Source of the DNA: a phage
Sequence record: PZ168832.1
Reading direction: 5' to 3' (one strand)
Length of the DNA: 64,000 nucleotides
Part shown: in pieces, positions 6,612 to 60,080 of the stretch
Position numbering within the stretch: the first letter of the stretch is position 1
Layout: the number at the start of each line of letters is the position of its first letter
Notes under the pieces: model-generated
The model's database searches: none
What the model saw: the letters and a program-made list of their open reading frames with translations, nothing else
What the model was told of the DNA's origin: nothing
Program-made: the position numbers and the translations under genes

Positions 6612-8282
6612 ATGTCAATTGAACATGACAATCTTCCAGAGGATACAGGTGATGAATTTGGTGCAATCTTTGACGAAATTCAAGACGCTGGTGTTTCAGA
6701 AGAAATGCAAGCAGCAGAGCAGCAAGGCACCAGAGCTAAAATAAGCCTTCAGCACAAGGCTGTTGAGAAAGATGCAGAGCGCATGGAATGCTACGGTGAA
6801 GAAGACTTGGTTGAAAGGGCACGTTTGCTCGCCTCACTTCAGGTAATCAAGTTCCCTCACTATAAACCGACGAAAGATGATTTTGTTCTTCAGGCGGACC
6901 GGACGAGTGACATGAACCGTTATGCGGTTTTCGACGCGTTGTTTGATAAGGGAAGCGGCGTTGTTCCATTCCCTCACAAAGATACTTTTCGTGGGCGCTT
7001 AGTCGACCATCGCGGCGAAACATTCACCGACCGGACGTTGGAAGTCACAGAGATAGTTGCCGCTGTCGACGCAGCAGGCCTGTCCAACCCAAACTCACGG
7101 CAGGTCGCTCAATCCTATAAGGAATGGGCCATGCGTTATCAGCGCGACGACCTGATGGACTTCTTCTACAAGAAGCTGCCTGAATGGGACGGTACTGCGC
7201 GCATTGAGAAATACCTTATCGAGCTATTCCGACCGTTCGATACAGAGTTAAACCGACAAATCGGTGTGTATTTTTGGCTATCGCTCTATAACCGCCTGAC
7301 CAACCCTGGCTGTCAAGCGCCAATATCCATTGCGCTCATCGGCGGCCAGAACGCAGGGAAGAGTTATTTTAGTAAGCTGCTTTGCGAAGCTATTATGAAC
7401 GACCGCCACGCAACACCGATTCCGTTGAACTTGGCCGCGCAAAACTTCAACCCGTTCTTGCGAGCTATTACGGGTCGCTCAATTATCGCGAACGTTGGCG
7501 AGATGACAGGCTTTAAAAAGGCCGACATCGAAAACATGAAAGCATTCCTGACTAAGACGGAAGATGACCTGGACTTCAAATTTGAAGACACGCAGGTTAA
7601 ACCACGCCAGTGGATTGCGATCATGGACGGCAACGAATACGCAGGCATGCAGCGTGACGACACGGGCAACCGTCGTGTTTACCCTATCTTTGTTGGCCAA
7701 CTTGCTGACAAGGACGGGCAACCGAACTGGTCTAAAGACTTCCAAGCTGACCTTTCCACTTTGAAAGAAGATGTTTGGCAGCTTATGGCTGAGTGCGCTG
7801 CGTGGATGGAGAAGCACGGCGAAGCAGGTTACAACGCCTTTGTTGGTGAAACGTCTCGTATGCTTACTGAGTTCAGCAAGAATGAAATGGAACGCGCTCG
7901 CGGCGTTATCCGTGATGAGATGGTCGACAACGACCTTGTTGAAGTCGTCATTACTGCGCCTTATGACCGACATCACAGCGGACGCTGGCACATCACCAGT
8001 GGTGCAATCGCTATGGGATTCAGAGCTAAGTGCGGCAAGTCGCCTTTCTCACGTACCCTTGCGCCGCACATGTCGAAACTTGGATTTGAGCCTGCAACCT
8101 ATCGCAACCAGCGTGGTTACTTTACGCCGCTGATTAAGAATGAAGCAGGGGAATACATTTCTGACTTGATGACTATCTTGGCGTATCTTATCCGCGACGA
8201 GTCTGACCCTGAAGATATTGAATTCTTGAAGAAGGTTATTGAACGCAAACGTTCTTTAGGAAGAGATAAGGATGAATTCTGA
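6612..8282 (+). CDS. Primase-associated P-loop helicase (VirE / D5-like, SF3-type)
   Basis: Walker A GGQNAGKSYFSKLL; 556 aa; sits downstream of the Prim-Pol gene, giving a split primase-helicase arrangement. Confidence 0.6.
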   Translation: MSIEHDNLPEDTGDEFGAIFDEIQDAGVSEEMQAAEQQGTRAKISLQHKAVEKDAERMECYGEEDLVERARLLASLQVIKFPHYKPTKDDFVLQADRTSDMNRYAVFDALFDKGSGVVPFPHKDTFRGRLVDHRGETFTDRTLEVTEIVAAVDAAGLSNPNSRQVAQSYKEWAMRYQRDDLMDFFYKKLPEWDGTARIEKYLIELFRPFDTELNRQIGVYFWLSLYNRLTNPGCQAPISIALIGGQNAGKSYFSKLLCEAIMNDRHATPIPLNLAAQNFNPFLRAITGRSIIANVGEMTGFKKADIENMKAFLTKTEDDLDFKFEDTQVKPRQWIAIMDGNEYAGMQRDDTGNRRVYPIFVGQLADKDGQPNWSKDFQADLSTLKEDVWQLMAECAAWMEKHGEAGYNAFVGETSRMLTEFSKNEMERARGVIRDEMVDNDLVEVVITAPYDRHHSGRWHITSGAIAMGFRAKCGKSPFSRTLAPHMSKLGFEPATYRNQRGYFTPLIKNEAGEYISDLMTILAYLIRDESDPEDIEFLKKVIERKRSLGRDKDEF

Positions 8283-10939: not shown

Positions 10940-10945
10940 ATATCA

Positions 10946-10978
10946 AAAGGTGAGCTAAATGCTTGCCTTTTATTTTAT
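10946..10978 (+). terminator. Rho-independent terminator (copy 1 of a duplicated element)
   Basis: AAAGGTGAGC-TAAAT-GCTTGCCTTT hairpin (10 bp including 2 G-U pairs) plus T-tract; identical to 12199-12223. Confidence 0.55.
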
Positions 10979-12193: not shown

Positions 12194-12198
12194 TTCAA

Positions 12199-12230
12199 AA
12201 AGGTGAGCTAAATGCTTGCCTTTTTATTTG
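12199..12230 (+). terminator. Rho-independent terminator (copy 2 of the duplicated element)
   Basis: Same hairpin sequence as 10946-10970, followed by TTTTTATTT. Confidence 0.55.
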
Positions 12231-15643: not shown

Positions 15644-15660
15644 TAGTGATTAATGTTAAG

Positions 15661-15684
15661 AGGGCCGATTGGCCCTTTTTGTTT
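15661..15684 (+). terminator. Rho-independent terminator ending the plus-strand early array
   Basis: AGGGCC-GATT-GGCCCT hairpin followed by TTTTTGTTTG. Confidence 0.6.
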
Positions 15685-15798
15685 GCCTGTGGAATGTGAG
15701 GCTTTTGTGGTTATTTACGATTCAAGGCTGTAATTTAAGAGAGCGAAAATATTATAATAATTTATCAAGATTATTGCATATTGTGGCAATCAACGTTT

Positions 15799-16499
15799 AT
15801 ACGTATTTATGACAGTTTAATCCACTAAATAATACGGATAGAACAGTGAGGAAAATACAGCGGTGTATTTTAGTGTAAATATTGAATCAAAAATAAATAA
15901 TTATGGTGCTATTATATACGCAGATTGTTTGTAATTTATAGGATATTTTATCGTGGAGTATTGGCTAACGGTGCGTTAGCCGTGGGTCTTGGTGCTTGTG
16001 GTGTTGATGCTCAGAATTTTAATAATGTTTTAGTTTTAGTAATCGTAGTCAATGATGATACGTATAAGAAAATGAGAGTCACCCCTTCACAGGATATTGT
16101 ACCGTGGCCCTGTGGTGCGCCGCGCCTGGGATTGCTGGTATACACTGGTGCTATTTTGCCGCGAAGGCAGTCATTCATACGTATCATGACGTATCATTGG
16201 GCTATTGATTTATAAGGAAAAATACGCTGATACGGATGATACGGGTGCAAACATAATATATATAGAATTCCAGAAAATTAATTAACTCCATTTTGAATTA
16301 ATTTAAATTAATTTTTTTCTACATCCTCATACTTATACTAAACTTATATTTATACGTATCATCCGTAAGATATAAGTAAAAACAAAGACTTGCGGCAATA
16401 CGGATGATACGTCATGATACGCTTCAACCAGCCATCTGCGGCTAAGTCATTGATTTGCATAACAAGCGGCGAAAGGGATGGATTTCTTTTATACGTATC
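15799..16499. repeat. Iteron cluster A: 9-10-bp CGTATCATC / GATGATACG units in both orientations around an AT-rich core
   Basis: Units at about 16057-16065, 16176-16200, 16229-16245, 16353-16369, 16398-16422, 16491-16499; AT-rich core 16261-16316; 8-bp palindrome GGCTAACG..CGTTAGCC at 15962-15980. Confidence 0.6.
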
Positions 16500-16635
16500 A
16501 AACAGTACACCACGCACCACGGTCCGCAATCCACGCAGCATTATGATTTGTGTACATTTATAGCCATAATGAACATCAATCTGCACTTGAATATAATGTC
16601 CATCCATTGTATAATTCACACTATTAATTTGCACT

Positions 16636-17124
16636 ATGGGATTTTGCACTATGAGTCAAGACTATGTAGCGATGCCTGAAGACTTTGAAGACCCGCGATT
16701 TGCAGAGCACAATCAGGCTTTATTCGATGAGTTCATTGACCTTGTTATTCAGGGCCATGACATGCGCGCAGCTTTTGCACTAGTATTTGGAATGGAAGTT
16801 GCAACGGATAACTACACTGGACAGCGAATCCTTTGCGCGCAACGCAACCCATACTACAAAATGCGCTTCAAAAAGCGTATGGAAGAGATGCCACTCAAGG
16901 ATTTGTGGAGCGTAAAAGGTGCAATTCACAATTTGGTTAAGCTTGTGCGTGATCCAGAAGTCGCGGCGTCAGCCAAGCTTAATGCTATTCGCGAACTGAA
17001 TATCATCTACGGCATCACGATGATTGATGAAAACGGCAATAGTAAAATGGGCCGTTCCATGGACGATTTCTACAAGGATTTTGGAGAGGCAGCCAAAGAA
17101 GGCGAGCAATTCTCCCGCCACTAG
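16636..17124 (+). CDS. Terminase small-subunit-like DNA-binding protein (tentative)
   Basis: N-terminal FDEFIDLVIQGHDMRAAFALVFG and QRNPYYKMR resemble the small-terminase HTH pattern (F..EY..d.n...AA..AGYS ... LL.NP.V), by recall only. Alternative starts at 16651 and 16672. Confidence 0.4.
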   Translation: MGFCTMSQDYVAMPEDFEDPRFAEHNQALFDEFIDLVIQGHDMRAAFALVFGMEVATDNYTGQRILCAQRNPYYKMRFKKRMEEMPLKDLWSVKGAIHNLVKLVRDPEVAASAKLNAIRELNIIYGITMIDENGNSKMGRSMDDFYKDFGEAAKEGEQFSRH

Positions 17125-17142
17125 CCAATTTGCACTATAAAA

Positions 17143-17178
17143 CGGCCCTAGAACACATCTTCTCCACTTCTAGGGCCG
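17143..17178 (+). other. 11-bp perfect inverted repeat (stem-loop) just after the terminase-small-like gene
   Basis: CGGCCCTAGAA, 14-nt loop, TTCTAGGGCCG; no T-tract follows. Confidence 0.3.
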
Positions 17179-17523
17179 TCGGTAATACGACGGGGAAGGT
17201 TGCAACCGTAAACGCGTTAGAAAGTGTATTATTATAAGTCATCTTTTAGTCACCTTACGTAACAATTTACGACCTTCAGCCGTCCAATCGAACGACTCCA
17301 CCAGCAGATTCGCACTATAACCTAAGATGATGCGCCCTTTCTCGTTATCGACCCGCCAACAAGTCTCGAATAGCATTCGATTTGCACTATTAACTATCGC
17401 CGCAACGCGCGTAGGGTAAACGCAATTTGCACTATGGTCATAAAGGGATAAGGTGCGACCACTTCCGATGGACAACGTAGCGATGAGAATGAGCGTATTC
17501 ATAAGCCACCAATTTGCACTATG

Positions 17524-17546
17524 AAAAGCGACCCCGAAGGGCCGCC
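17524..17546 (-). terminator. Rho-independent terminator ending the minus-strand arm of the cassette
   Basis: On minus strand GGCGGCCC-TTCG-GGGTCGC (7-bp stem with one G-U, TTCG tetraloop) followed by TTTT. Confidence 0.45.
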
Positions 17547-17552
17547 ATTCGA

Positions 17553-18179
17553 TTAGATAATCTGGAAGGTGTAGGACTTGTTGCCGAACTCGAAGTTCAA
17601 GCGCCCAGCTTCCTTAAGCTTCATGCGGAAGCGAATATGTTTGCTATCCGGTAAGCCCAGCGCGGCGAACGCTACGCGGACCGATTTGAACTCTCCTACA
17701 CCCTCGACCATAACGCCGTTACGGGTAAGACGCTTTTGCGCCACTTCCTTATTATCCCAACTTTTTGCAATGCCTTCGCTATTCGAACGGCGATGGGAAG
17801 GAGTTCCGTTTTGCACTACGCAATTTGCACTATCGTTTAAACCGCTCTTAACGAAGGCTTCATACTCTTCGTCGGTCATCGCGTCGAGTTCTTCCTGCGT
17901 CGGCTCGGCCTTTTTAACGACCGCACGCGCCTTATGCGTTTTTACATCGCTGGACACTTCCTCGCGCGGCTTCGCGTCGGGGATGGGCGATTCGTTGGAC
18001 GGCTCATCGAGCGCGTTTAAGGACTCGATTAACGCGATTACGCGAGTCTCGGCGGTCCGGCGGTCCGAAAACTTCTTAATCGGTTTTGAGCCGGAATTTG
18101 CATTATAGAATGCAACGAGGTCGGCGGTCTTAGTTGCGATAACGTCGCCGCTAGTCGAGAAGCGATTTAAGCTAACCAT
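17553..18179 (-). CDS. Hypothetical protein (208 aa), cassette gene
   Basis: Strong third-position bias with abundant CGC/TCG/GCG/TTA codons unlike the rest of the window; the antisense ORF 17578..18108 is Ser-rich low complexity. Confidence 0.55.
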   Translation of the reverse strand: MVSLNRFSTSGDVIATKTADLVAFYNANSGSKPIKKFSDRRTAETRVIALIESLNALDEPSNESPIPDAKPREEVSSDVKTHKARAVVKKAEPTQEELDAMTDEEYEAFVKSGLNDSANCVVQNGTPSHRRSNSEGIAKSWDNKEVAQKRLTRNGVMVEGVGEFKSVRVAFAALGLPDSKHIRFRMKLKEAGRLNFEFGNKSYTFQII

Positions 18180-18259
18180 AATAAACTCCTATTTGTTAGG
18201 GCGCTAGGCGCGAAAGAATTTTATTAAAGCGCCGCGCACGACGCTCTAAAAATCCTCTC

Positions 18260-18544
18260 TTACGCTTCGACGAGGGAGAAGGTTTCAAATTCTTCTTCTC
18301 CCATAACGAGTAAAATATTCCCGATTTCGACCGCTTCGAAGAAGTATCCGTTAACGTTTACTTCGAATGATTCGCGGTCCGATTCCGGTAACGCCGCGTA
18401 AAGTTTAAAAGCCTCGGCGACCGTTACCCCACCCGCTTCAATAGTTTGATCTACGTTCGCGGCGTAGACTTCGGATAAATTTTGTTTTACGCCGTAGTTC
18501 TCGACGATAGCGTTACGGATAGAAGAAACGTTAAGAATAGCCAT
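18260..18544 (-). CDS. Small acidic protein, paralogue of 19176..19466
   Basis: Aligns by eye with 19176..19466: SIRNA/SAIRAA, LSEVYAANVDQTIE vs LESVYLSNVDATIE, VNVNGYFFEAVEIG vs VTINGFVYTITEIG. Confidence 0.55.
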   Translation of the reverse strand: MAILNVSSIRNAIVENYGVKQNLSEVYAANVDQTIEAGGVTVAEAFKLYAALPESDRESFEVNVNGYFFEAVEIGNILLVMGEEEFETFSLVEA

Positions 18545-18612
18545 TTTAAACTCCTAGTTGGGATAGGCGTTAACGACCTATTCGTTAACTCATCCCGTCC
18601 CGATATGAGTAC

Positions 18613-18640
18613 ATTATAATATAGTGTAGAAAAAAGTAAA
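18613..18640 (-). promoter_or_regulatory. Cassette promoter P1 (sigma70-like)
   Basis: On minus strand TTTACT, 16-nt spacer, TATAAT, followed by a conserved TATCGGGACGGG block. Confidence 0.5.
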
Positions 18641-18684
18641 GCACTTTTTCGATAAAAATGCGATAAATTATTTTATCTTTTTTC

Positions 18685-18712
18685 TTTACTTCTTCGTACA
18701 CTCGCGTATACT
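18685..18712 (+). promoter_or_regulatory. Cassette promoter P2 (sigma70-like)
   Basis: TTTACT (18685-18690), 16-nt spacer, TATACT (18707-18712), then conserved GTTTATATCGAGACGG. Confidence 0.5.
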
Positions 18713-18767
18713 TGTTTATATCGAGACGGGCGATGGCCTTTCTTCTACTAGCATCGGGAGCTTTATT

Positions 18768-19070
18768 ATGACTACTTTGATCTCTTCCATCCTTACTTAC
18801 GACGAAGACCGCTTAACCGTTCGCTCTCTTATCGCCGCCGTTAACGCGGAACTAGAATCTAGCGCCATTAAGGTCCGCGCGGTCGCCTTCATCGGCCTTT
18901 CCTTCGACGATATGAAGTACGCCGAACGTAGCGCCATCCGCTTCACGAAGACCGACGACGAAGCCGTTACCCTTATCGAGACGGTTACGCCGCGCGACGA
19001 AGCGTTAATTATCATCGAGTATATCGATATAGAAGGTGATAAAGCTTATAAATATTTTATCGCAAAATAA
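18768..19070 (+). CDS. Small acidic protein (100 aa), cassette gene
   Basis: ORF with GGGAG RBS; same codon bias as the other cassette genes. Confidence 0.55.
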   Translation: MTTLISSILTYDEDRLTVRSLIAAVNAELESSAIKVRAVAFIGLSFDDMKYAERSAIRFTKTDDEAVTLIETVTPRDEALIIIEYIDIEGDKAYKYFIAK

Positions 19071-19081
19071 CGAAAAATTGC

Positions 19082-19110
19082 TTTACTTATTCGTACACTA
19101 AGACTATAAT
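19082..19110 (+). promoter_or_regulatory. Cassette promoter P3 (sigma70-like)
   Basis: TTTACT (19082-19087), 17-nt spacer, TATAAT (19105-19110), then conserved GTTTATATCGAGAGGG. Confidence 0.55.
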
Positions 19111-19175
19111 GTTTATATCGAGAGGGATGAGGAAGCGAATAGGTCGCTACCCTCCCGACTAACTAGGAGAATATT

Positions 19176-19466
19176 ATGATTACTTTATCCGCTATCCGCG
19201 CCGCTCGCGTCGAAACTTCCGAAAACTCTAATGTATTTGGCGAAACCTTAGAGAGCGTTTATCTCTCTAACGTAGACGCGACTATCGAGTCTATTTATGA
19301 ACCGATCAACTTCCTCGACCTTTACAAGTATCGCGACGAGGACGTAGCATCCTACCGCGTAACGATTAACGGCTTCGTCTATACGATTACCGAAATCGGC
19401 GGCGAATATCTCGCGATCCCGCAACTCGGCGGAGAAGTGACTTATTTTAAAATCGTAAGCCTTTAA
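19176..19466 (+). CDS. Small acidic protein, paralogue of 18260..18544
   Basis: See alignment under 18260..18544; TAGGAG RBS. Confidence 0.55.
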   Translation: MITLSAIRAARVETSENSNVFGETLESVYLSNVDATIESIYEPINFLDLYKYRDEDVASYRVTINGFVYTITEIGGEYLAIPQLGGEVTYFKIVSL

Positions 19467-19477
19467 GGAGAAGAAAA

Positions 19478-19687
19478 ATGACTAATATGAATAACTCTCT
19501 TAACGCGCGCGCCCATCGTACCGCCGTCATCGATATGTTCCGCGAACTTAAGGAATTATGCGATAATATGAACGCGATGTTATCCATCGGCGGCTGGGGA
19601 TACGAAGAAGAGGTTAAATACGCGGTTATGCGTCGTAAGCGCGATAACGTCCTGGGACAAATTAAACGCGCCGGATTATTCCTTTAA
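19478..19687 (+). CDS. Small hypothetical protein (69 aa), cassette gene
   Basis: GGAGAAG RBS then ATG; followed by a terminator. Confidence 0.45.
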   Translation: MTNMNNSLNARAHRTAVIDMFRELKELCDNMNAMLSIGGWGYEEEVKYAVMRRKRDNVLGQIKRAGLFL

Positions 19688-19713
19688 TTATAATTACCCA
19701 CCGTTACTAATAG

Positions 19714-19739
19714 GCCGCGCTTAGTCGCGGCTTTTCTTC
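19714..19739 (+). terminator. Rho-independent terminator ending the plus-strand arm of the cassette
   Basis: GCCGCG-CTTAGT-CGCGGC hairpin followed by TTTTCTTCG. Confidence 0.55.
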
Positions 19740-19857
19740 GTCCCTATTTCGATGCGCTTCTCCGCGAAAACTCCTTTATCCTTCCCTTCGTCGTCGCATA
19801 ATCTTCTTCGAGATGCTCCTTAGTTCGCATAACAGGTATTACGTTAAATGGAGAACA

Positions 19858-19931
19858 TCGCGTAAGTCCTTGTTTTATATAGACACCTATATCGGACCGT
19901 TAGGGCGGGTCGCGTAAGTCGTTGTTTTATA
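19858..19931 (+). repeat. Direct repeat pair TCGCGTAAGTC(C/G)TTGTTTTATA
   Basis: Copies at 19858-19879 and 19910-19931, 52 bp apart, in a non-coding stretch. Confidence 0.5.
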
Positions 19932-20056
19932 AAGGCGCAAAACTTTCCCTTCGTTCCGAACTAAAACGAGGAATATGCCGACCCTTCGTCCGAAAATAGT
20001 ACGCATGCGAAATTACATGCATCTAGAATAATCCCCACCGATATTATCCTACACGC

Positions 20057-20120
20057 AATCATTCGCTTTCGAATCATTATGCTTCATATTGTTATGCGTC
20101 AAATCATTCGCTTTCGAATT
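20057..20120 (+). repeat. Direct repeat pair of an internally palindromic unit AATCATTCGCTTTCGAAT
   Basis: Copies at 20057-20075 and 20102-20120; each contains the inverted repeat ATTCG..CGAAT. Confidence 0.5.
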
Positions 20121-20391
20121 GTAACGCTGGAAACTGTAACGGCTATTGATTATTGCGTTCGTGTGGTTTTTATGGCATGGGTCTTTTGGTGCGTTTTGGT
20201 ACTTGATGGAATTTGCGGTACACTAATCAAAATACGACACATTTGGTCCACTAACTTTTCAAAGAAAAAGTCCCAGACAGTACCGTACTATTTTGTACCC
20301 ACAGTAAATTTGCAGTACACTCCTGCGCGGCAGGCAAAATAAAGGGCCGCCACAGCGACCCACGATTCACGGTTAAATCAACAAGCACCCA

Positions 20392-28039: not shown

Positions 28040-28201
28040 TTCAATCTCCTTTCGTTTGGTTAACTAAAATATAACTCAAAATGATACAAAAGCAAAATAT
28101 TTTATGAACTATTTATGATTACTATACATATCATTTGCTTACAAACACATGAATATTTATAATATAGATTGATTCCCTTTCACTGTCAGGTGGCGTTAAC
28201 A

Positions 28202-30577
28202 ATGAAAATTCTTGGCATAAAACTCTGGGAGAAGACGCAACCAGAAGCCGAACCAGCGGAGATGCCGCCAGGCGACCCATTGGCACCGTTTGAACGCCTT
28301 GAAAGGCGCGGCAGCGGTCAACGCTGGGAAAAGACTGAAAGCAATCGACCGACCTTTAAAACGGTTGATGACTTCCCTTTATATGAGCCTGATATTAATG
28401 GCGATGGTGTTGCAATCATAAAAGGTCGTTCAGTCGATTCCGCAACAGTATCCAAAAAGGTTATGGATAATGCCTTAAAGAACATCAGTTCAGAAGGGCA
28501 AGTCAACCCATACACAGTACCTATTCAACTTCAAAACTGGTATTTGTCACAGTCATTTATCGGCTATCAAGCTTGTGCCATCATCGCACAGCATTGGCTG
28601 GTGAACAAGGCTTGCTCTATGGTAGGCCGTGATGCAGTGCGTAAAGGTTGGGAAGTAAAATCAAGCTCTGAATCAGAATTGTCTGTGCAGGCCAGCGAAC
28701 GCTTAAAGCAAATTGATAAAGAATTTAATATCAAAGAGCACTTAGTTGAAGCCGAACGATTCAAAAATATTTTTGGTATCCGCGTCATCATATTTGATGT
28801 GCGTAGCGATGATCCAGAATACTACAGCAAACCTTTTAACATTGATGGTGTGACAAAGGGGTCTTATAAGGGAATCATTCAGGTTGACCCTTATTGGATG
28901 ATGCCATTTTTGACGTCTGAAAACACCGCCGACCCTGCATCACAGCACTTCTATGATCCAGAATACTGGGTGATCAGCGGACAACGTTATCATCGAAGCC
29001 ACCTGATCATTTTGCGAAACGATGAGCCAGCTGATATTCTCAAGCCGACTTATATTTACGGCGGCATCCCTCTGACTCAGCAGATTTATGAACGCATCTA
29101 TGCCGCTGAACGTACCGCTAACGAAGCGCCATTGCTGGCGATGTCCAAGCGTACAACCACGCTGCGGACCGACGTTGACAAGGCGATTGCCAATGAGCGG
29201 TCTTTTGCTGAACGTCTGATGATGTGGATTAAGTACCGCGACAACTATGCAGTCAAAGTGCTTGGTCAAAAAGAAGAGATGGACCAGTTCGACATCAACT
29301 TGTCAGACTTCGACAGCATCATCATGAACCAGTACCAGCTGGTGGCCGCAATCGCAAAAGTTCCGTCGACCAAACTTCTTGGGACTTCGCCAAAAGGCTT
29401 TAACGCCACTGGTGAATTTGAGATGGTCAGCTATCACGAAGAGTTGGAAACGTGCCAGCAGCATGACCTGACAAAAATTCTCGACCGCCATTACAAAATC
29501 CTTCTCAAATCAGAAGGGGTGGAAGTCGACGTTAAGGTTGCATGGGAACCAGTTGGCTCACTTACTGCTACTCAACTTGCAGAAATCAACGACAAGCGAG
29601 CTAACACTGGCAAAACTCTCATTGATGCTGGCGTCATTTCTCCTGATGAAGAGCGCGACCGCATCAAAGACGACAAAAACAGCGGCTACAACCGTCTGCC
29701 GGAAGACGCAGCAGAAGAAACCCCAGGGATGTCTCCAGAGAATATGGCATTGCTTGGCAAGTCTGCTGGTGAAGTCCTGCAAGGTAAGGCCGATATTGAA
29801 CAGGCGAAAGTTGATGTCGTTAAGATGGGCGGCCAGTTCTATAGCGAAACAGGTATTATGCCAGAGGGTGCCGCGCGTGGTGAGTTGGCGGAAAACCCTG
29901 ACAAAGCGCCTGTCGAAATCAACATGGACGATACCGATGATGAATCAAGCCATCAGGTTGATGTCCTAACGCAGTTGAAAGAAGGGCTGGAGGGTATTGC
30001 GGATTACTACCTGAAAGAAGGTCAGGATGTGGATTTTGACCCTCAAAAAGATTCACGGTCGGTGCAACCGTCTACCCTTCCAAGCGTTAAAGGACACGTC
30101 GTCAACTTACGCCACAACGTGGGTAAAATGGACGCAGCATCATTACCTAAGATGAAGTTGCACGGAATGATTCTTGGCATTGAGAATCCGCGAAACAGCA
30201 TTCGTAGAGGAAACAGCCTTGACGGTGAATGGGCCGTGAAGATGCCGCACCACTACGGATTCATCAAGGGCACCAAGGGCGCAGACGGTGATGAAGTCGA
30301 CTGCTTTGTGGGTCCAAATCTGAAGTCGCCGAAAGTCTTTATCGTGAACCAAAACGATAACTACTCTGGCGAGTTTGATGAACACAAGTGTATGCTTGGA
30401 TTCGATTCAGCAGAAGAAGCGAAAGAAGCTTATCAAGCATCATTTGGTAACGGTTGGAACGGATTCGACTCAATCCACGAATTAGATGTGAACTCATTCA
30501 AGGAGTGGTTGAAGGGTGATTGCTCTCAAGCATACGGAGCACTCAATAATCCTACTAATTCACCGAAGCAAGGTTGA
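28202..30577 (+). CDS. Portal protein with an unassigned C-terminal extension (tentative)
   Basis: Position directly after terminase and before a Mu-F-like head morphogenesis gene; AGGTGG RBS then ATG at 28202; about 790 aa, larger than typical portals. Confidence 0.6.
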   Translation: MKILGIKLWEKTQPEAEPAEMPPGDPLAPFERLERRGSGQRWEKTESNRPTFKTVDDFPLYEPDINGDGVAIIKGRSVDSATVSKKVMDNALKNISSEGQVNPYTVPIQLQNWYLSQSFIGYQACAIIAQHWLVNKACSMVGRDAVRKGWEVKSSSESELSVQASERLKQIDKEFNIKEHLVEAERFKNIFGIRVIIFDVRSDDPEYYSKPFNIDGVTKGSYKGIIQVDPYWMMPFLTSENTADPASQHFYDPEYWVISGQRYHRSHLIILRNDEPADILKPTYIYGGIPLTQQIYERIYAAERTANEAPLLAMSKRTTTLRTDVDKAIANERSFAERLMMWIKYRDNYAVKVLGQKEEMDQFDINLSDFDSIIMNQYQLVAAIAKVPSTKLLGTSPKGFNATGEFEMVSYHEELETCQQHDLTKILDRHYKILLKSEGVEVDVKVAWEPVGSLTATQLAEINDKRANTGKTLIDAGVISPDEERDRIKDDKNSGYNRLPEDAAEETPGMSPENMALLGKSAGEVLQGKADIEQAKVDVVKMGGQFYSETGIMPEGAARGELAENPDKAPVEINMDDTDDESSHQVDVLTQLKEGLEGIADYYLKEGQDVDFDPQKDSRSVQPSTLPSVKGHVVNLRHNVGKMDAASLPKMKLHGMILGIENPRNSIRRGNSLDGEWAVKMPHHYGFIKGTKGADGDEVDCFVGPNLKSPKVFIVNQNDNYSGEFDEHKCMLGFDSAEEAKEAYQASFGNGWNGFDSIHELDVNSFKEWLKGDCSQAYGALNNPTNSPKQG

Positions 30578-30578
30578 T

Positions 30579-31430
30579 ATGGCTTTTAAAGCTTCGAAAA
30601 AACGTGAACGCCGCTCACCCGATAGAATCGGACGCGGCAGTCCGATAATCCCATCAAACGCTATTGCGATGGCCTACCGTCGTGAGATGAAAGGTCTTTG
30701 CTATGCGATGATTGATGACTATCAGGCAGGCATTTCAGAATGGCTTGACAAGAAGCAGGTGCAGAAGTTTTTTGCGCAAGACTCTGCTGATTCGACATTC
30801 CAGACCCTTATGAAACGGCTGCAACTGAAATGGGCAAAGGCGTTTGCACGTGTTGGGTCGAAGATTGCCGCTGATTTTATCAAATCGGTCGAAAAGGGTG
30901 CCACTTCTGCTACATTCGCAAGCCTTAAGTCCGCAGGCATAGAAGCGCCAAAGGCCACATATAACAAATTCGTTGAGAACACTCTTAGAACAAGCGAGAA
31001 GTTTAACACGACTCTAGTGACTAAGGTCGGCGAGGATATTCACAACAGGGTGTACGAAGCGGTGATGCTTTCGCTGACTTCGCCAGACCCAGCACAGCAA
31101 GGCGCATCCGGCATTCAGGCGGCATTAAGAAATGTCAAACACTTCTCTGCAAAACGCGTAGACCTTATCGCCAAAGACCAAACGAGCAAACTTTATTGCG
31201 TATTAAGTGATGAAAGGATGCGACAGAATGGCGTGGAGGAATTTGAGTGGGCGCATTCAGGAGCAGGCAAAGAGCCGCGAATATCACATGAGCACGTCGA
31301 CGGCATGAGATTCAAGCTTGATGACAAACGCTTATGGGAAGTAGGTGGAGAACTTAAGTTCAAAAAGGGTGACATCGGTCCTCCTGGATGGGCAATACAC
31401 TGCAAGTGCAGAAAAATACCAATTATCTGA
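30579..31430 (+). CDS. Head morphogenesis protein (Mu gpF / SPP1 gp7-like)
   Basis: C-terminal HEHVDGM ... PPGWAIHCKCRKIPI, characteristic of this family. Confidence 0.7.
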   Translation: MAFKASKKRERRSPDRIGRGSPIIPSNAIAMAYRREMKGLCYAMIDDYQAGISEWLDKKQVQKFFAQDSADSTFQTLMKRLQLKWAKAFARVGSKIAADFIKSVEKGATSATFASLKSAGIEAPKATYNKFVENTLRTSEKFNTTLVTKVGEDIHNRVYEAVMLSLTSPDPAQQGASGIQAALRNVKHFSAKRVDLIAKDQTSKLYCVLSDERMRQNGVEEFEWAHSGAGKEPRISHEHVDGMRFKLDDKRLWEVGGELKFKKGDIGPPGWAIHCKCRKIPII

Positions 31431-31502: not shown

Positions 31503-31640
31503 ATGCAAAAGATTATTCAGTCACGTTATGTTAAAGTGCGAAATATTAATTGCAACTCTTTGCTTTCTTGGAAATGGGCTGTTTATGACTCAATGCTGAT
31601 TGGCGTTTTAGTTGCTGGAGTGCTTTTTAATATTCACTGA
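31503..31640 (+). CDS. Small hydrophobic peptide (45 aa)
   Basis: AGAGGA RBS then ATG; hydrophobic C-terminus MLIGVLVAGVLF. Confidence 0.3.
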   Translation: MQKIIQSRYVKVRNINCNSLLSWKWAVYDSMLIGVLVAGVLFNIH

Positions 31641-31672: not shown

Positions 31673-31950
31673 CGCGTATAATGACGTATCATCCGTATCA
31701 AGTAAGTAGTTGTTTTCAAAAGAATCTTACGGATGATACGGATGATACGCGTTGCCGCGATACTTTATAGGAATTCAAATAAATTAATTTAAAATTATAT
31801 ATCTAATTTAATTTTATTTTTTTATAAACTCTTATATATGAAAAGTATCCGTATCATCCGTATCATCCGTAGCACACCAGTGATAGCGCGGCTTATACAC
31901 CGATACGGATAAAAATACGCCTCATTTTATCCGTATCATCCGTATCACAC
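31673..31950. repeat. Iteron cluster B: same 9-bp CGTATCATC / GATGATACG units and a homologous AT-rich core
   Basis: Units at 31681-31700, 31727-31750, 31845-31873, 31901-31920, 31925-31950; AT-rich core 31767-31824 shares TATAG(G)AATTC and AATTAATTTAAA with cluster A. Confidence 0.6.
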
Positions 31951-32062
31951 TAATTAAGGCGCGGCTATATCGGTTGTTATACATATTCAAACCATAATTA
32001 TTGTTTGCCTAAGTTTTTTTCATTAGATATAATACACAATACTTATTTGAGGGTGGATGCGA

Positions 32063-33475
32063 ATGCAAACGGCACGCGAAATTGACAAAAATGGATTCTT
32101 GACGATTGTGGGTTGTCCCATTTCGTCATTTGGCATTTTTGATTATTCTGCAGGTCAGGTTGGACTTGATGGTGATCCGAATCGCATCGTAAAAGTTTAT
32201 CGCCCAGAGTCAGCGGTGAAAGACCCCGAAGCGATAGATTCATTCAAAAATATCCCTTTCATCGACAATCACGAAATGCTTTCTGGATTCGAAGGTGATG
32301 AGGATAACACAGCACCCGAAGAGTATGGAGTTGATGGCGTTCTGACTGGCAATGTTTATTATGACAAGCCATGGATGCGCGGCGACCTTAAAGTGTTTAG
32401 CCGTCGTCTGAAGAAGGCCATTGATTCTGGAAAGGTTGACTTGTCTTTGGGCTATGACTGTGAATTCATCATACAGTCTGGAGAGTTTGACGGGCAGCCG
32501 TATGAAGTGGTGCAGACAACTCTTCGCGGCAACCACATTGCTCTCGTGGACGTTGGTCGAGTACCAGGTGCACGGGTGCTGGATGGTCGTTGCTTTGACC
32601 ATCTTTGTTTGACGACTGTAACACCATCCAACGAGGATTTAGACATGCCAAAACCGTTAAAAGGTAAAGCGCGTGATAATGCTGTTGAACAGCTGAAATC
32701 ACTGATCCCTGCGCTCGAACAATTTCTGAATGAAGAGAGTACTGAAGCTGCTCATCAGGACGAAGTTGAAGTGAAAGCAGAAGAGAAGGACTCAACCGAA
32801 AATCGTGAAGAAGTAATGGTTGATCCAGAAGTCAAGGCAGAAGCAGAAGAAACCCCAGAAGGTGAAGAGAAGTTTGAAGTTGAAACTGAATCTAACGCTG
32901 GCGGCGAACTTCCGCAATTGATCAGCCAAATCGAAGCACTTATTGCAAAACTGAAAGGTGGCGCGGTAGGTGATGAAGAAGAAGTTGAAGCCGAAGTCAA
33001 AGACGAAGAAGTTGAAGTCAAGGCTGAAGATGTATCACCTTGCGACAAAGCTGAAGATGTGGTTAGCGGCCTGCAAAACAGCAACGTAAAGGGGGCTTCG
33101 GTCGAAAAAGATGACAAACCGACAAAAGCGGCGAAAGCGTCGCCAGGTCCAGCAAAAGGGGAACACTCAATGGCATCTGATTCAGCAGTTGCTGCTTTCT
33201 ACGCTGATTCTGCTCGTAAGAATAGCCTCTACCAGCGCCTGTCTAAAGTTGTTGGTGCCTTTGATCATGCAACTATGGACTCCAAGTCCGTAGCGAAATA
33301 TGGCGCTAAAAAGTTAGGCTTGAAGTGCGTTGATGGTGCTGAGTTTGACGTGGTGGATAATTATCTGCGTGGCGTTGAACACGGTCAAAAACAGCGTGTA
33401 GTCGCAAAACAAAAGGCCGCTGCGGATTCTGCAGCAACTGACGAAGCATTTGAAGCTTGGTTGAAAGGGGAATAA
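32063..33475 (+). CDS. Prohead protease / scaffold-like protein with acidic repeats (tentative)
   Basis: Lies between the head morphogenesis gene and the capsid gene; central region of EVEVKAEE-type acidic repeats. Confidence 0.5.
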   Translation: MQTAREIDKNGFLTIVGCPISSFGIFDYSAGQVGLDGDPNRIVKVYRPESAVKDPEAIDSFKNIPFIDNHEMLSGFEGDEDNTAPEEYGVDGVLTGNVYYDKPWMRGDLKVFSRRLKKAIDSGKVDLSLGYDCEFIIQSGEFDGQPYEVVQTTLRGNHIALVDVGRVPGARVLDGRCFDHLCLTTVTPSNEDLDMPKPLKGKARDNAVEQLKSLIPALEQFLNEESTEAAHQDEVEVKAEEKDSTENREEVMVDPEVKAEAEETPEGEEKFEVETESNAGGELPQLISQIEALIAKLKGGAVGDEEEVEAEVKDEEVEVKAEDVSPCDKAEDVVSGLQNSNVKGASVEKDDKPTKAAKASPGPAKGEHSMASDSAVAAFYADSARKNSLYQRLSKVVGAFDHATMDSKSVAKYGAKKLGLKCVDGAEFDVVDNYLRGVEHGQKQRVVAKQKAAADSAATDEAFEAWLKGE

Positions 33476-58556: not shown

Positions 58557-60080
58557 TTAATTCATCTTTTTGCCGTCGAGGATGTGATCAGCAAGCATAG
58601 ATTTCATGCTCAGTGAACGCTGAATTTCTTCGTCGATGGTATCAACGCCAATAAAATCAACATACAACACGCTTGATTTGGTGCCGATGCGGTGATTTCG
58701 GTCTTCGGATTGCTTGCGCAACTCGTTGTCATAGTTGCAAGAATAATAGATTGCCAAGTCGGCGGCTGTAAGCGTGATTCCGATGCCTGCCGCTGCAGCG
58801 TGACAAACAAGCACTTGCGTCCCACCGTTCTCGACTGTGTTCTTCTGGAAGTCATCAATCAAGAACTCACGCTGCTCTTTTGACGTCTCACCGTTATATA
58901 AACCAGTGACCACTCCTTCAGACTCAAGCCAATCCTTAATCTGGTTCATCTCTTCCTTAAAGATGGCCCAAACAATGAATTTGCGCTCTGGGTCGTCTTC
59001 CAGCACCCCTTCCACATAGTCCTTAAAGGCCGTGAATCGTGGGTTGTCTTCCATGTAGACCATCTCATCATACACCTTAACAAAGCCTGATGTAACCTGC
59101 TTCATCTTAGTGCGAGATGCGATCATCTCAAACTTAACGTTTTCTTCTTCGCCCTTGTATTCCATCAAATAGTTGTACTCATTCTTGAGTTCATCGTAGA
59201 CATCGCGTTGTTTAGGCGACAGCTCGAAGTCGATAAACTTATACACCTTCTCTGGAAGGTCAGGCAAGTATTCCGCTTTTGTCGCACGAAAATAGTGCGG
59301 TTCCATCAGCCGGATAAGCTTGTCAAGGTTTTTGTACATCGGTCGGCCAAACTGGTCTTTGCGCGGCACTTGCGGAATCCCATGGCCATTGCCGCCGATT
59401 TTCTTGAGAATGGCCTGCATCTCTGGGTCGTGCGCTTCAAGCAGCACCGTGAATTCAGAATTGAATGCACGGAACGATTTTGTGCCAAGCAAGCCAGCTT
59501 CAAGGAAGTGATACTGCATGTAAATATCAGCAGGCGAGCGCGGCAGCGGCGTACCGGAAAGGATTCGACGGGCCTTTGCCAGCCGTCCCAATTCCACAAC
59601 CTTGATGGAGCGTTTGGCTGTGTTATTTTTGATACGCGTCGATTCATCAATGATCATCAAACAGCGGTACTTCTTCAGGACGGACTCAATGTGTTGATAA
59701 CCGACTGGCGTATTCACCGTATCAATGTTGAATGAGAAGATGCGCGCAGGCACTTCACCTTCAGGGTAGTGATCAGCAAACATCTTCTCCCAAAGCGCCT
59801 TGCCCTTTTTAGTCTTCATCTTGTCATTGCCGCGCCAGTAATGCCCAATCCACTTGATGGAAAGGTGTTCTGGTGCTTCACGACGAATCCAGTTTGAGTG
59901 CACACCGTTAGGAGCGATGACAACCATGGCATCAAATGCGCCAGCGGCGAAGTGTTTTTCAAACTCTGCCAAAGCAGTCCAGGTTTTGCCAAGACCCTGC
60001 TCCATGAAATAAGCAAAGTATTTTCTGCGGCCTGCTTTATCAAGCGCCAATAATTGGTGGCGCATTCCTTGTGTTTTCAT
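58557..60080 (-). CDS. SNF2-family (SF2) helicase / ATPase
   Basis: Walker A MEQGLGKTW, DEAH-like MIIDESTRIK, helicase C-terminal motifs. Confidence 0.8.
   Translation of the reverse strand: MKTQGMRHQLLALDKAGRRKYFAYFMEQGLGKTWTALAEFEKHFAAGAFDAMVVIAPNGVHSNWIRREAPEHLSIKWIGHYWRGNDKMKTKKGKALWEKMFADHYPEGEVPARIFSFNIDTVNTPVGYQHIESVLKKYRCLMIIDESTRIKNNTAKRSIKVVELGRLAKARRILSGTPLPRSPADIYMQYHFLEAGLLGTKSFRAFNSEFTVLLEAHDPEMQAILKKIGGNGHGIPQVPRKDQFGRPMYKNLDKLIRLMEPHYFRATKAEYLPDLPEKVYKFIDFELSPKQRDVYDELKNEYNYLMEYKGEEENVKFEMIASRTKMKQVTSGFVKVYDEMVYMEDNPRFTAFKDYVEGVLEDDPERKFIVWAIFKEEMNQIKDWLESEGVVTGLYNGETSKEQREFLIDDFQKNTVENGGTQVLVCHAAAAGIGITLTAADLAIYYSCNYDNELRKQSEDRNHRIGTKSSVLYVDFIGVDTIDEEIQRSLSMKSMLADHILDGKKMN

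Follow-up and report, generated by a model that had tools for sequence, protein, structure and literature searches.

What does a non-coding block of repeats do in the middle of the structural genes of a phage? The question is raised by the window (the whole 64,000-nucleotide stretch of DNA that was analyzed). In it, a first-pass annotation had marked a module of 9-bp units and an AT-rich core at 31673-31950 and had described it as a partial duplicate of a similar cluster closer to the start of the window. Two origins, a duplicated regulatory site and a recombination hotspot were offered as readings. The module was borne out at 31673-31950 and is called B here; the other cluster is called A.

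Module B and its genomic setting

The window phage belongs to the genus Wifcevirus and is an E. coli myovirus distantly related to the PB1-like Pseudomonas phages (Pbunavirus). The 7.9 kb around module B were 96-97% identical to WFH, WFC, ECML-117, FEC19, Mansfield, and other Wifcevirus genomes. Pfam families in this region were those of a large terminase, a portal, a MuF-like protein, a DUF2213 protease/scaffold, and a major capsid protein. Module B was flanked by a 45-aa ORF and the head protease gene, at a distance of 15.0 kb from the small-terminase gene (terS) and approximately 300 bp upstream of the operon encoding the head protease, scaffold, and capsid proteins. Its repeat unit comprised the core word CGTATCA within the 9-mer CCGTATCAT. 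The module and its surroundings contained the following features:

31503-31640, plus strand: small conserved ORF of 45 aa with a hydrophobic C-terminus; stops just before B and is annotated in WFH, Mansfield, and LBL3
31673-31950, no strand: module B, repeat units on either side of an AT-rich core
31675-31700, plus strand: left outer units in direct orientation (CGTATAA, degenerate, at 31675; CGTATCA at 31685 and 31694)
31728-31749, minus strand: left inner units TACGGATGATACGGATGATACG (units at 31734 and 31743), one arm of the inverted repeat
31750-31849, no strand: AT-rich core of 100 bp, lowest GC in 80 nt 9%; approximately position 31794 is the aligned counterpart of A's virion DNA end
31846-31872, plus strand: right inner units, three tandem 9-mers (CGTATCA at 31850 and 31859), the other arm of the inverted repeat
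31902-31948, no strand: right outer units, a degenerate inverted pair (31902-31919) followed by direct plus-strand units at 31932 and 31941 (31930-31948)
32005-32033, plus strand: sigma-70-like promoter TTGCCT-17-TATAAT in the gap from B to the protease gene, matching the consensus at 10 of 12 positions; a consensus match only
32057-33475, plus strand: head maturation protease/scaffold gene (DUF2213), the first gene of the operon downstream of B

The inner units of B formed a perfect 22-nt inverted repeat around the core, and a spacer of approximately 27 bp separated the left direct units from the left inverted units. No ORF longer than 30 aa was found inside B, and an Rfam scan of B returned sub-threshold matches only (miRNA and sRNA look-alikes). 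Both these look-alikes and the strong single-strand fold of B (z = -7.4) are explained by the 22-nt inverted repeat. On the Rfam and ORF results, a known structured RNA and a small protein gene were rejected as identities for B. A search of 5,426 complete E. coli genomes and 72,556 plasmids gave no match to B. A mobile repeat (MITE/REP) and a plasmid-derived origin were likewise rejected, given this lack of a host or plasmid match and the presence of only two copies in the phage.

Three further observations concerned other parts of the genome. The portal ORF (28169-30577) contained an inorganic-pyrophosphatase-like domain (PF18823, E=3e-46) C-terminal to the Phage_portal_3 domain. At the position corresponding to approximately 30577 of the window, Mansfield (L001:2980-3831) and WFH (L002:14079-14930) contained an extra 852-bp gene, located between the portal gene and the gene aligning with window positions 30516-31430. 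This gene was labeled hypothetical in Mansfield and MuF-like "head morphogenesis" in WFH, and because of it 7,901 bp of the window corresponded to approximately 8,767 bp in those relatives. Within the early-gene block, a 32-nt direct repeat (AAAAGGTGAGCTAAATGCTTGCCTTTT..., 94% identical) at 10945-10976 and 12198-12229 resembled a repeated terminator or regulatory hairpin.

Module A and the virion DNA end

The word CGTATCA occurred 24 times in the 64 kb, compared with 6.4 ± 2.6 times in shuffled sequences, and none of 100 shuffles reached 24. Two-thirds of the hits (16 of 24) fell in the clusters A (16167-16500) and B (31673-31950). The 12-mer GTATCATCCGTA was present in nine exact copies in the window, every one of them in A or B. 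The two modules were colinear over approximately 200 nt, the AT-rich core included, with a local alignment score of 83 vs. 20.4 ± 2.5 for shuffles. With the repeats excluded, the AT-rich cores alone scored 42 vs. 21.7 ± 3.5; one of 1000 shuffles reached 42, and the remaining AT-rich stretches of this genome reached a maximum of 24. Unit offsets (with strand) were -111+, -101+, -63-, -54-, +64+, +114-, and +124- from position 16290 in A, and -110+, -101+, -61-, -52-, +55+, +64+, +137+, and +146+ from position 31794 in B. Judged by these alignments, A and B are homologous beyond their repeats and follow one common repeat geometry. The claim that B partly duplicates A was thereby upheld, and the repeat word proved not to be a generic one for this genome.

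No third copy of the module was found in the window. A candidate from repeat finding at 19858-19934 was rejected, as its local alignment score of 27 was within the shuffle range (21 ± 2.5, maximum 32).

Module A was set among the following features:

16167-16500, no strand: module A, the same units as B and a related core; packaging-initiation/terminus site
16290, plus strand: physical left terminus of the virion DNA, also the left limit of the direct terminal repeat; assigned from homology with five Wifcevirus records
16290-20186, plus strand: direct terminal repeat, approximately 3.9 kb here; right boundary from alignment to the end of the WFH record
16636-17124, plus strand: small terminase (TerS) gene, the first gene after A, with the ATG at 16651 as the probable true start

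The GenBank records of WFH, WFC, Ro157lw, and SP13 contained a terminal repeat of approximately 3.7 kb and shared a common first base (ATTTTGAATTAATTT...), which corresponded to window position 16290, centrally within the AT-rich core of A. The ends of WFH and WFC had been placed where most reads stopped abruptly, giving a 3.7-kb terminal repeat (PMC6563267). For Mansfield the terminal repeat had been predicted by PhageTerm (PMC6753283), and both the record and this repeat began at the same base as the other four. GenBank record starts may partly be copied conventions; at least three of the end determinations were independent, namely the WFH and WFC read ends, the Mansfield PhageTerm prediction, and the long reads of Pbunavirus JG024 described below.

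The gene at 16636-17124 was identified as terS by its similarity to PDB 7UXE, the TerS of Pbunavirus E217 (phmmer E=6e-34; profile E=1e-50), by its membership in phrog_4783, and by an orthologue annotated as small terminase in Mansfield. Module A was 346 bp upstream of this gene, and repeat units were found approximately 55-65 bp and 100-110 bp away on either side of the cut at 16290. A DNA-end site directly upstream of terS is the usual arrangement of a pac site. Module A is the site of the packaging cut, which falls midway in the AT-rich core and creates the left end of the virion DNA.

Within Wifcevirus, B was 99-99.7% identical in four of the five relatives compared in full and 94.8% identical in WFC. 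Its conservation matched or exceeded that of the start of the neighboring protease gene, and the 3′ end of the adjacent MuF-like gene was below it at approximately 90% identity. In WFH the left arm of A (CTTACGGATGATACGGATGATACGCGTCGCCGCTATACTTTATA, L003:45500-45560) was almost identical to the left arm of B (window 31725-31775), whereas the window's own A had a left arm diverged from that of B. The two copies therefore exchange sequence, a pattern that suggests gene conversion between modules A and B. The DNA to the left of A (15650-16150) was unrelated to WFH, WFC, ECML-117, and FEC19 (alignment coverage approximately 10%); since similarity resumed inside A, a mosaic breakpoint coincides with the packaging site at the left edge of A.

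Other repeats were observed within the terminal repeat. A second repeated word, (A)ATTTGCACTAT, was present at 16628-18106 in 11 copies (seven exact), all on the plus strand. These copies were confined to the first 1.8 kb of the terminal repeat to the right of the DNA end, with none elsewhere in the 64 kb, and were intergenic, just before the start of terS, or inside minus-strand ORFs. The word may act as a promoter element specific to the phage, or as a signal near the DNA end for packaging or injection. Two direct-repeat families lay within the terminal repeat, close to its right boundary (approximately 20186), at 19858-19934 and 20057-20137 (TCGCGTAAGTC(C/G)TTGTTTTATA twice and AATCATTCGCTTTCGAAT three times). 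Their resemblance to B was at chance level, and they may have a role in the formation of the right end.

Paired modules in related genera

In the Pbunavirus phages JG024 and LBL3, a module of the word GGTAATTTGG around an AT-rich core was located between the primase-helicase gene and terS. For JG024, 36 of 161 long reads have been reported to begin at 59,376 ± 5, along with a corresponding pac fragment (PMC10913387). This position fell inside the core of the A-equivalent module; the tandem units AGTAATTTGGTAATTTGG follow 68 bp downstream and terS 601 bp downstream. The record of Ab27 started at the equivalent of 59,376 and that of PS44 at 59,377. Reads of Ab27 showed "a single fixed termination" without a terminal repeat (PMC4482731). 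From PS44 the start coordinate alone was used, as the record has an apparent terS duplication and its layout looks rearranged; duplication or misassembly has been suspected in a 68.8-kb Pbunavirus genome (PMC12390725), a size that agrees with PS44.

The record of Pantoea phage Kyle contained terS at both ends, which implies a terminal repeat of approximately 3.6 kb, and had its first base in the AT-rich core of a module made up of GGTTATTT units. Relative to the record start, the Kyle units were at -115+, -104+, -73-, -55-, +59+, and +77+, i.e., the Wifcevirus geometry with a different word. Across three genera, the virion DNA end is at the center of this module type, 55-70 bp from the nearest units.

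Modules corresponding to B were also present upstream of the protease gene. In LBL3 a 550-bp gap upstream of the protease contained GGTAATTTGG units around an AT-rich core. The corresponding gap of 457 bp in Burkholderia phage Maja contained GATAGTTAAC units (seven hits vs. 0.07 expected), and the one further cluster of this word in the Maja genome was directly upstream of the terS orthologue. When the module was looked for in relatives, the pair of A plus B recurred in Pbunavirus, Bcepfunavirus, phage Kyle, and an uncultivated lineage. The position of B within the structural operon had been regarded as unusual in the first-pass annotation; in this phage supergroup, a non-coding module directly before the head protease gene turned out to be usual. 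In all five lineages readable for both modules (Wifcevirus, Pbunavirus, Maja, Kyle, and the uncultivated contig lineage), the terS-proximal and protease-proximal modules had a word in common. The words shared by A and B were:

Wifcevirus: CCGTATCAT
Pbunavirus: GGTAATTTGG
Maja: GATAGTTAAC
Kyle: GGTTATTT / AAATAACC
Uncultivated lineage: AGTTGCGG / GCAACTAA

A wider survey covered 80 IMG/VR loci recovered with the protease N-domain and used k-mer counts rather than curated alignments. Most lineages with at least 60% protease N-domain identity had an 8-mer repeated four to eight times, each lineage with its own word, together with an AT trough that precedes the protease start by 230-350 bp. In most of the 800-nt windows of this phage that served as a control, the maximum 8-mer count was two to three. 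No such repeat cluster was found in IMG/VR groups more distant than 60% identity. Xanthomonas phage XcP1 (Carpasinavirus) had no clear A-type or B-type cluster, a single case that fits a linkage between A and B.

GC-rich boxes (TGCCGCG / CGCGGCA) adjoined the repeat units in the modules of Wifcevirus, Pbunavirus, and Maja, and in Pbunavirus they formed a 22-30 nt inverted repeat around the core. As a box conserved across genera, GCCGCG / TGCCGC was rejected: the word was common genome-wide (39-104 hits) and was not significant alone.

Candidate functions of module B

Module B had all of the features of A except an observed cut and a neighboring terS. Its repeat boxes stood in the arrangement of the functional site (-110, -101, -61, -52, and +64 in B vs. 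-111, -101, -63, -54, and +64 in A), and B is a paralogue of the packaging site A. No virion end, record start, or read pile-up was found at B in any relative examined: none of 29 Wifcevirus relatives had a record start at B, and the sampled Pbunavirus records had none at the B-type module. With no DNA end observed in it, B lacks the main functional mark of a pac site. Neither was it in or next to the small-terminase gene, which is 15.0 kb away.

Paired modules that co-vary in this way imply one sequence-specific protein recognizing both. The cut at the center of A, the conserved repeat distances, and the adjacency of terS make the small terminase the simplest candidate, and on the same three facts the element is best described as a "pac-type recognition module". 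In Wifcevirus, module A has stayed beside terS despite the approximately 8 kb of small genes between it and the primase-helicase gene, which favors a link to packaging over one to replication. Our best explanation, held with roughly even confidence, is that B may be an uncut or rarely cut terminase-recognition site that is auxiliary or synaptic in packaging, or that couples TerS occupancy to head-gene expression.

According to this explanation, a recognition protein, most simply a ring oligomer of TerS, would bind the repeat units of A, and the bound protein would wrap or bend the core and position the large terminase. With the units and geometry of A and a related core, B would assemble the same nucleoprotein complex. 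The complex at B might then help to load or pair terminase on concatemers or, as a second option, might make head-gene expression depend on TerS occupancy. A review has stated that E217 TerS is without appreciable binding in vitro to the DNA used there (PMC9611059), which calls for caution about TerS as the binder. The Wifcevirus terminal repeat, the structure of E217 TerS, and a putative JG024 pac coordinate are already published. In the literature searched, no prior description was found of the repeat architecture, of the conservation of lineage words, or of the second copy upstream of the head protease operon.

The pac site of SPP1 consists of pacL (box a), pacC, and pacR (box c), and that of P1 has hexamer repeats on both sides of the cut and an IHF site. 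Like A, these sites are next to or within the small-terminase gene. A further likeness to A is that recognition boxes are found on both sides of the first terminase cut, with bendable AT-rich DNA between them (PMC9611059). Unlike SPP1 and P1, which have a single pac, the phages described here have in B a conserved second full copy of the same geometry; 15-26 kb distant, it precedes the head protease operon and has no observed end. Also unlike the headful permutation of SPP1 and P1, the Wifcevirus cut is an exact end with a terminal repeat of 3.7-3.9 kb.

For T4, Black and co-workers reportedly described a pac-like sequence in gene 16 and a homologue in gene 19 as "synapsis" sites paired by gp16. 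As in T4, two homologous terminase-recognition sequences are present in the morphogenesis region of one genome, with pairing by the small terminase proposed. The T4 sites differ: they are short (approximately 24 bp), form part of coding sequence, and have neither repeat arrays nor an AT-rich core. In the present phages, pairing is only proposed. Lambda cosB has the order R3, I1, R2, R1. The likeness there lies in small-terminase sites in opposite orientation with a bend site between them, next to the nicking site and the small-terminase gene. Lambda differs in having a single site and cohesive ends, and the cores described here are without an IHF consensus: the one match was outside the core of A, with none in that core and none in B.

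Alternatively, A and B could be replication origins, or parts of a bipartite origin, with the repeats as iterons for an initiator (e.g., the VapE-like primase-helicase encoded at 6612-8282), a core that unwinds, and a DNA end that is separate or coupled. The modules have the classic look of an iteron origin, with repeats in both orientations flanking an AT-rich core of approximately 100 bp and 9% GC. The A-type module directly follows the primase-helicase gene in Pbunavirus and Maja, and lineage-specific repeat words are typical of initiator-iteron pairs. Two distant copies served by one protein have precedents in SPP1 oriL/oriR (G38P) and P4 ori/crr (alpha primase-helicase), and repeats flanking an AT-rich region are a likeness to iteron origins generally, SaPI ori among them.

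We nevertheless consider an origin improbable. Unlike iteron origins, the module holds the packaging end, and in Wifcevirus it keeps company with terS rather than with the helicase gene: A and the VapE-like gene are 7.9 kb apart, A and terS 346 bp, and B is in the head-gene block. An origin leaves the cut at the center of the module in three genera, with conserved repeat distances, unexplained, and the units are spaced 9-10 bp apart in short inverted sets, not in long phased arrays. As a weaker point, the cumulative GC-skew minimum was at approximately 3-4 kb in the window, away from A and B. Pbunavirus GC-skew minima have been reported to fall within replication genes (PMC12390725). GC skew in phages mostly follows transcription or gene orientation and is therefore a weak test for an origin. 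The first-pass view of an origin-like element, possibly one of two origins, is accordingly not supported, given the five Wifcevirus genome ends at 16290 in A, just upstream of terS, and the position of the skew minimum.

B and A could also be the upstream regulatory regions of late promoters, at which a phage transcription factor other than TerS binds the repeats and switches the promoters of terS and of the protease, scaffold, and capsid genes. Sigma-70-like promoters follow both modules (TTGAAT-17-TATAAT at 16587-16615 after A; TTGCCT-17-TATAAT at 32005-32033 after B); from the last repeat unit to the -35 element, the distance is 58 bp in B and 70-87 bp in A. In the LBL3 annotation, promoters are predicted within both cores and overlap the repeats on the right. 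The distance from AT trough to downstream start codon was similar for the two module types (230-350 bp for most B-type, 315-390 bp for A-type modules), and the Pbunavirus phage 14-1 has promoters requiring a phage factor (PMC10914365). Our promoter calls were, however, consensus matches only, no more numerous than in shuffles, and no candidate regulator was identified. This reading, too, leaves the DNA end at the center of A in three genera unexplained, and we regard it as doubtful. It would be compatible with the best explanation if TerS itself were the regulator.

It is very improbable that B is a functionless relic, i.e., a duplicated pac module resembling A only through gene conversion, or a mere recombination hotspot, since B-type modules occupy the same position in several genera with protease N-domains only 60-70% identical and carry words matched to A, which requires selection on both copies, and since B is more conserved in Wifcevirus than the 3′ end of the MuF-like gene. 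The sequence exchange visible between the left arms of A and B in WFH and the mosaic breakpoint at the left edge of A do speak for this reading.

Extended to the PB1-like myoviruses (Pbunavirus, Wifcevirus, Bcepfunavirus, Kyle, and relatives), the terminase-recognition reading becomes a tentative proposal of two-site packaging. A pac module by terS and a co-evolving copy before the head operon would be bound by one protein, and their pairing or looping might license the first cut of the concatemer, or head-protein synthesis might be tied to the availability of terminase.

In these phages the small terminase is encoded far from the large terminase. The lineage-specific repeat arrays at fixed distances around a mapped end provide a concrete candidate DNA substrate for TerS, and a conserved second copy, apparently undescribed, makes recognition of DNA by TerS directly testable. 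The Pbunaviruses count among the most widely used therapeutic Pseudomonas phages, and the Wifceviruses are their E. coli relatives; the genome ends of Pbunavirus have been reported inconsistently (PMC12390725). The modules matter for phage engineering and rebooting because they show where not to insert into or split genomes, and knowledge of the packaging site bears on judging the risk of transduction.
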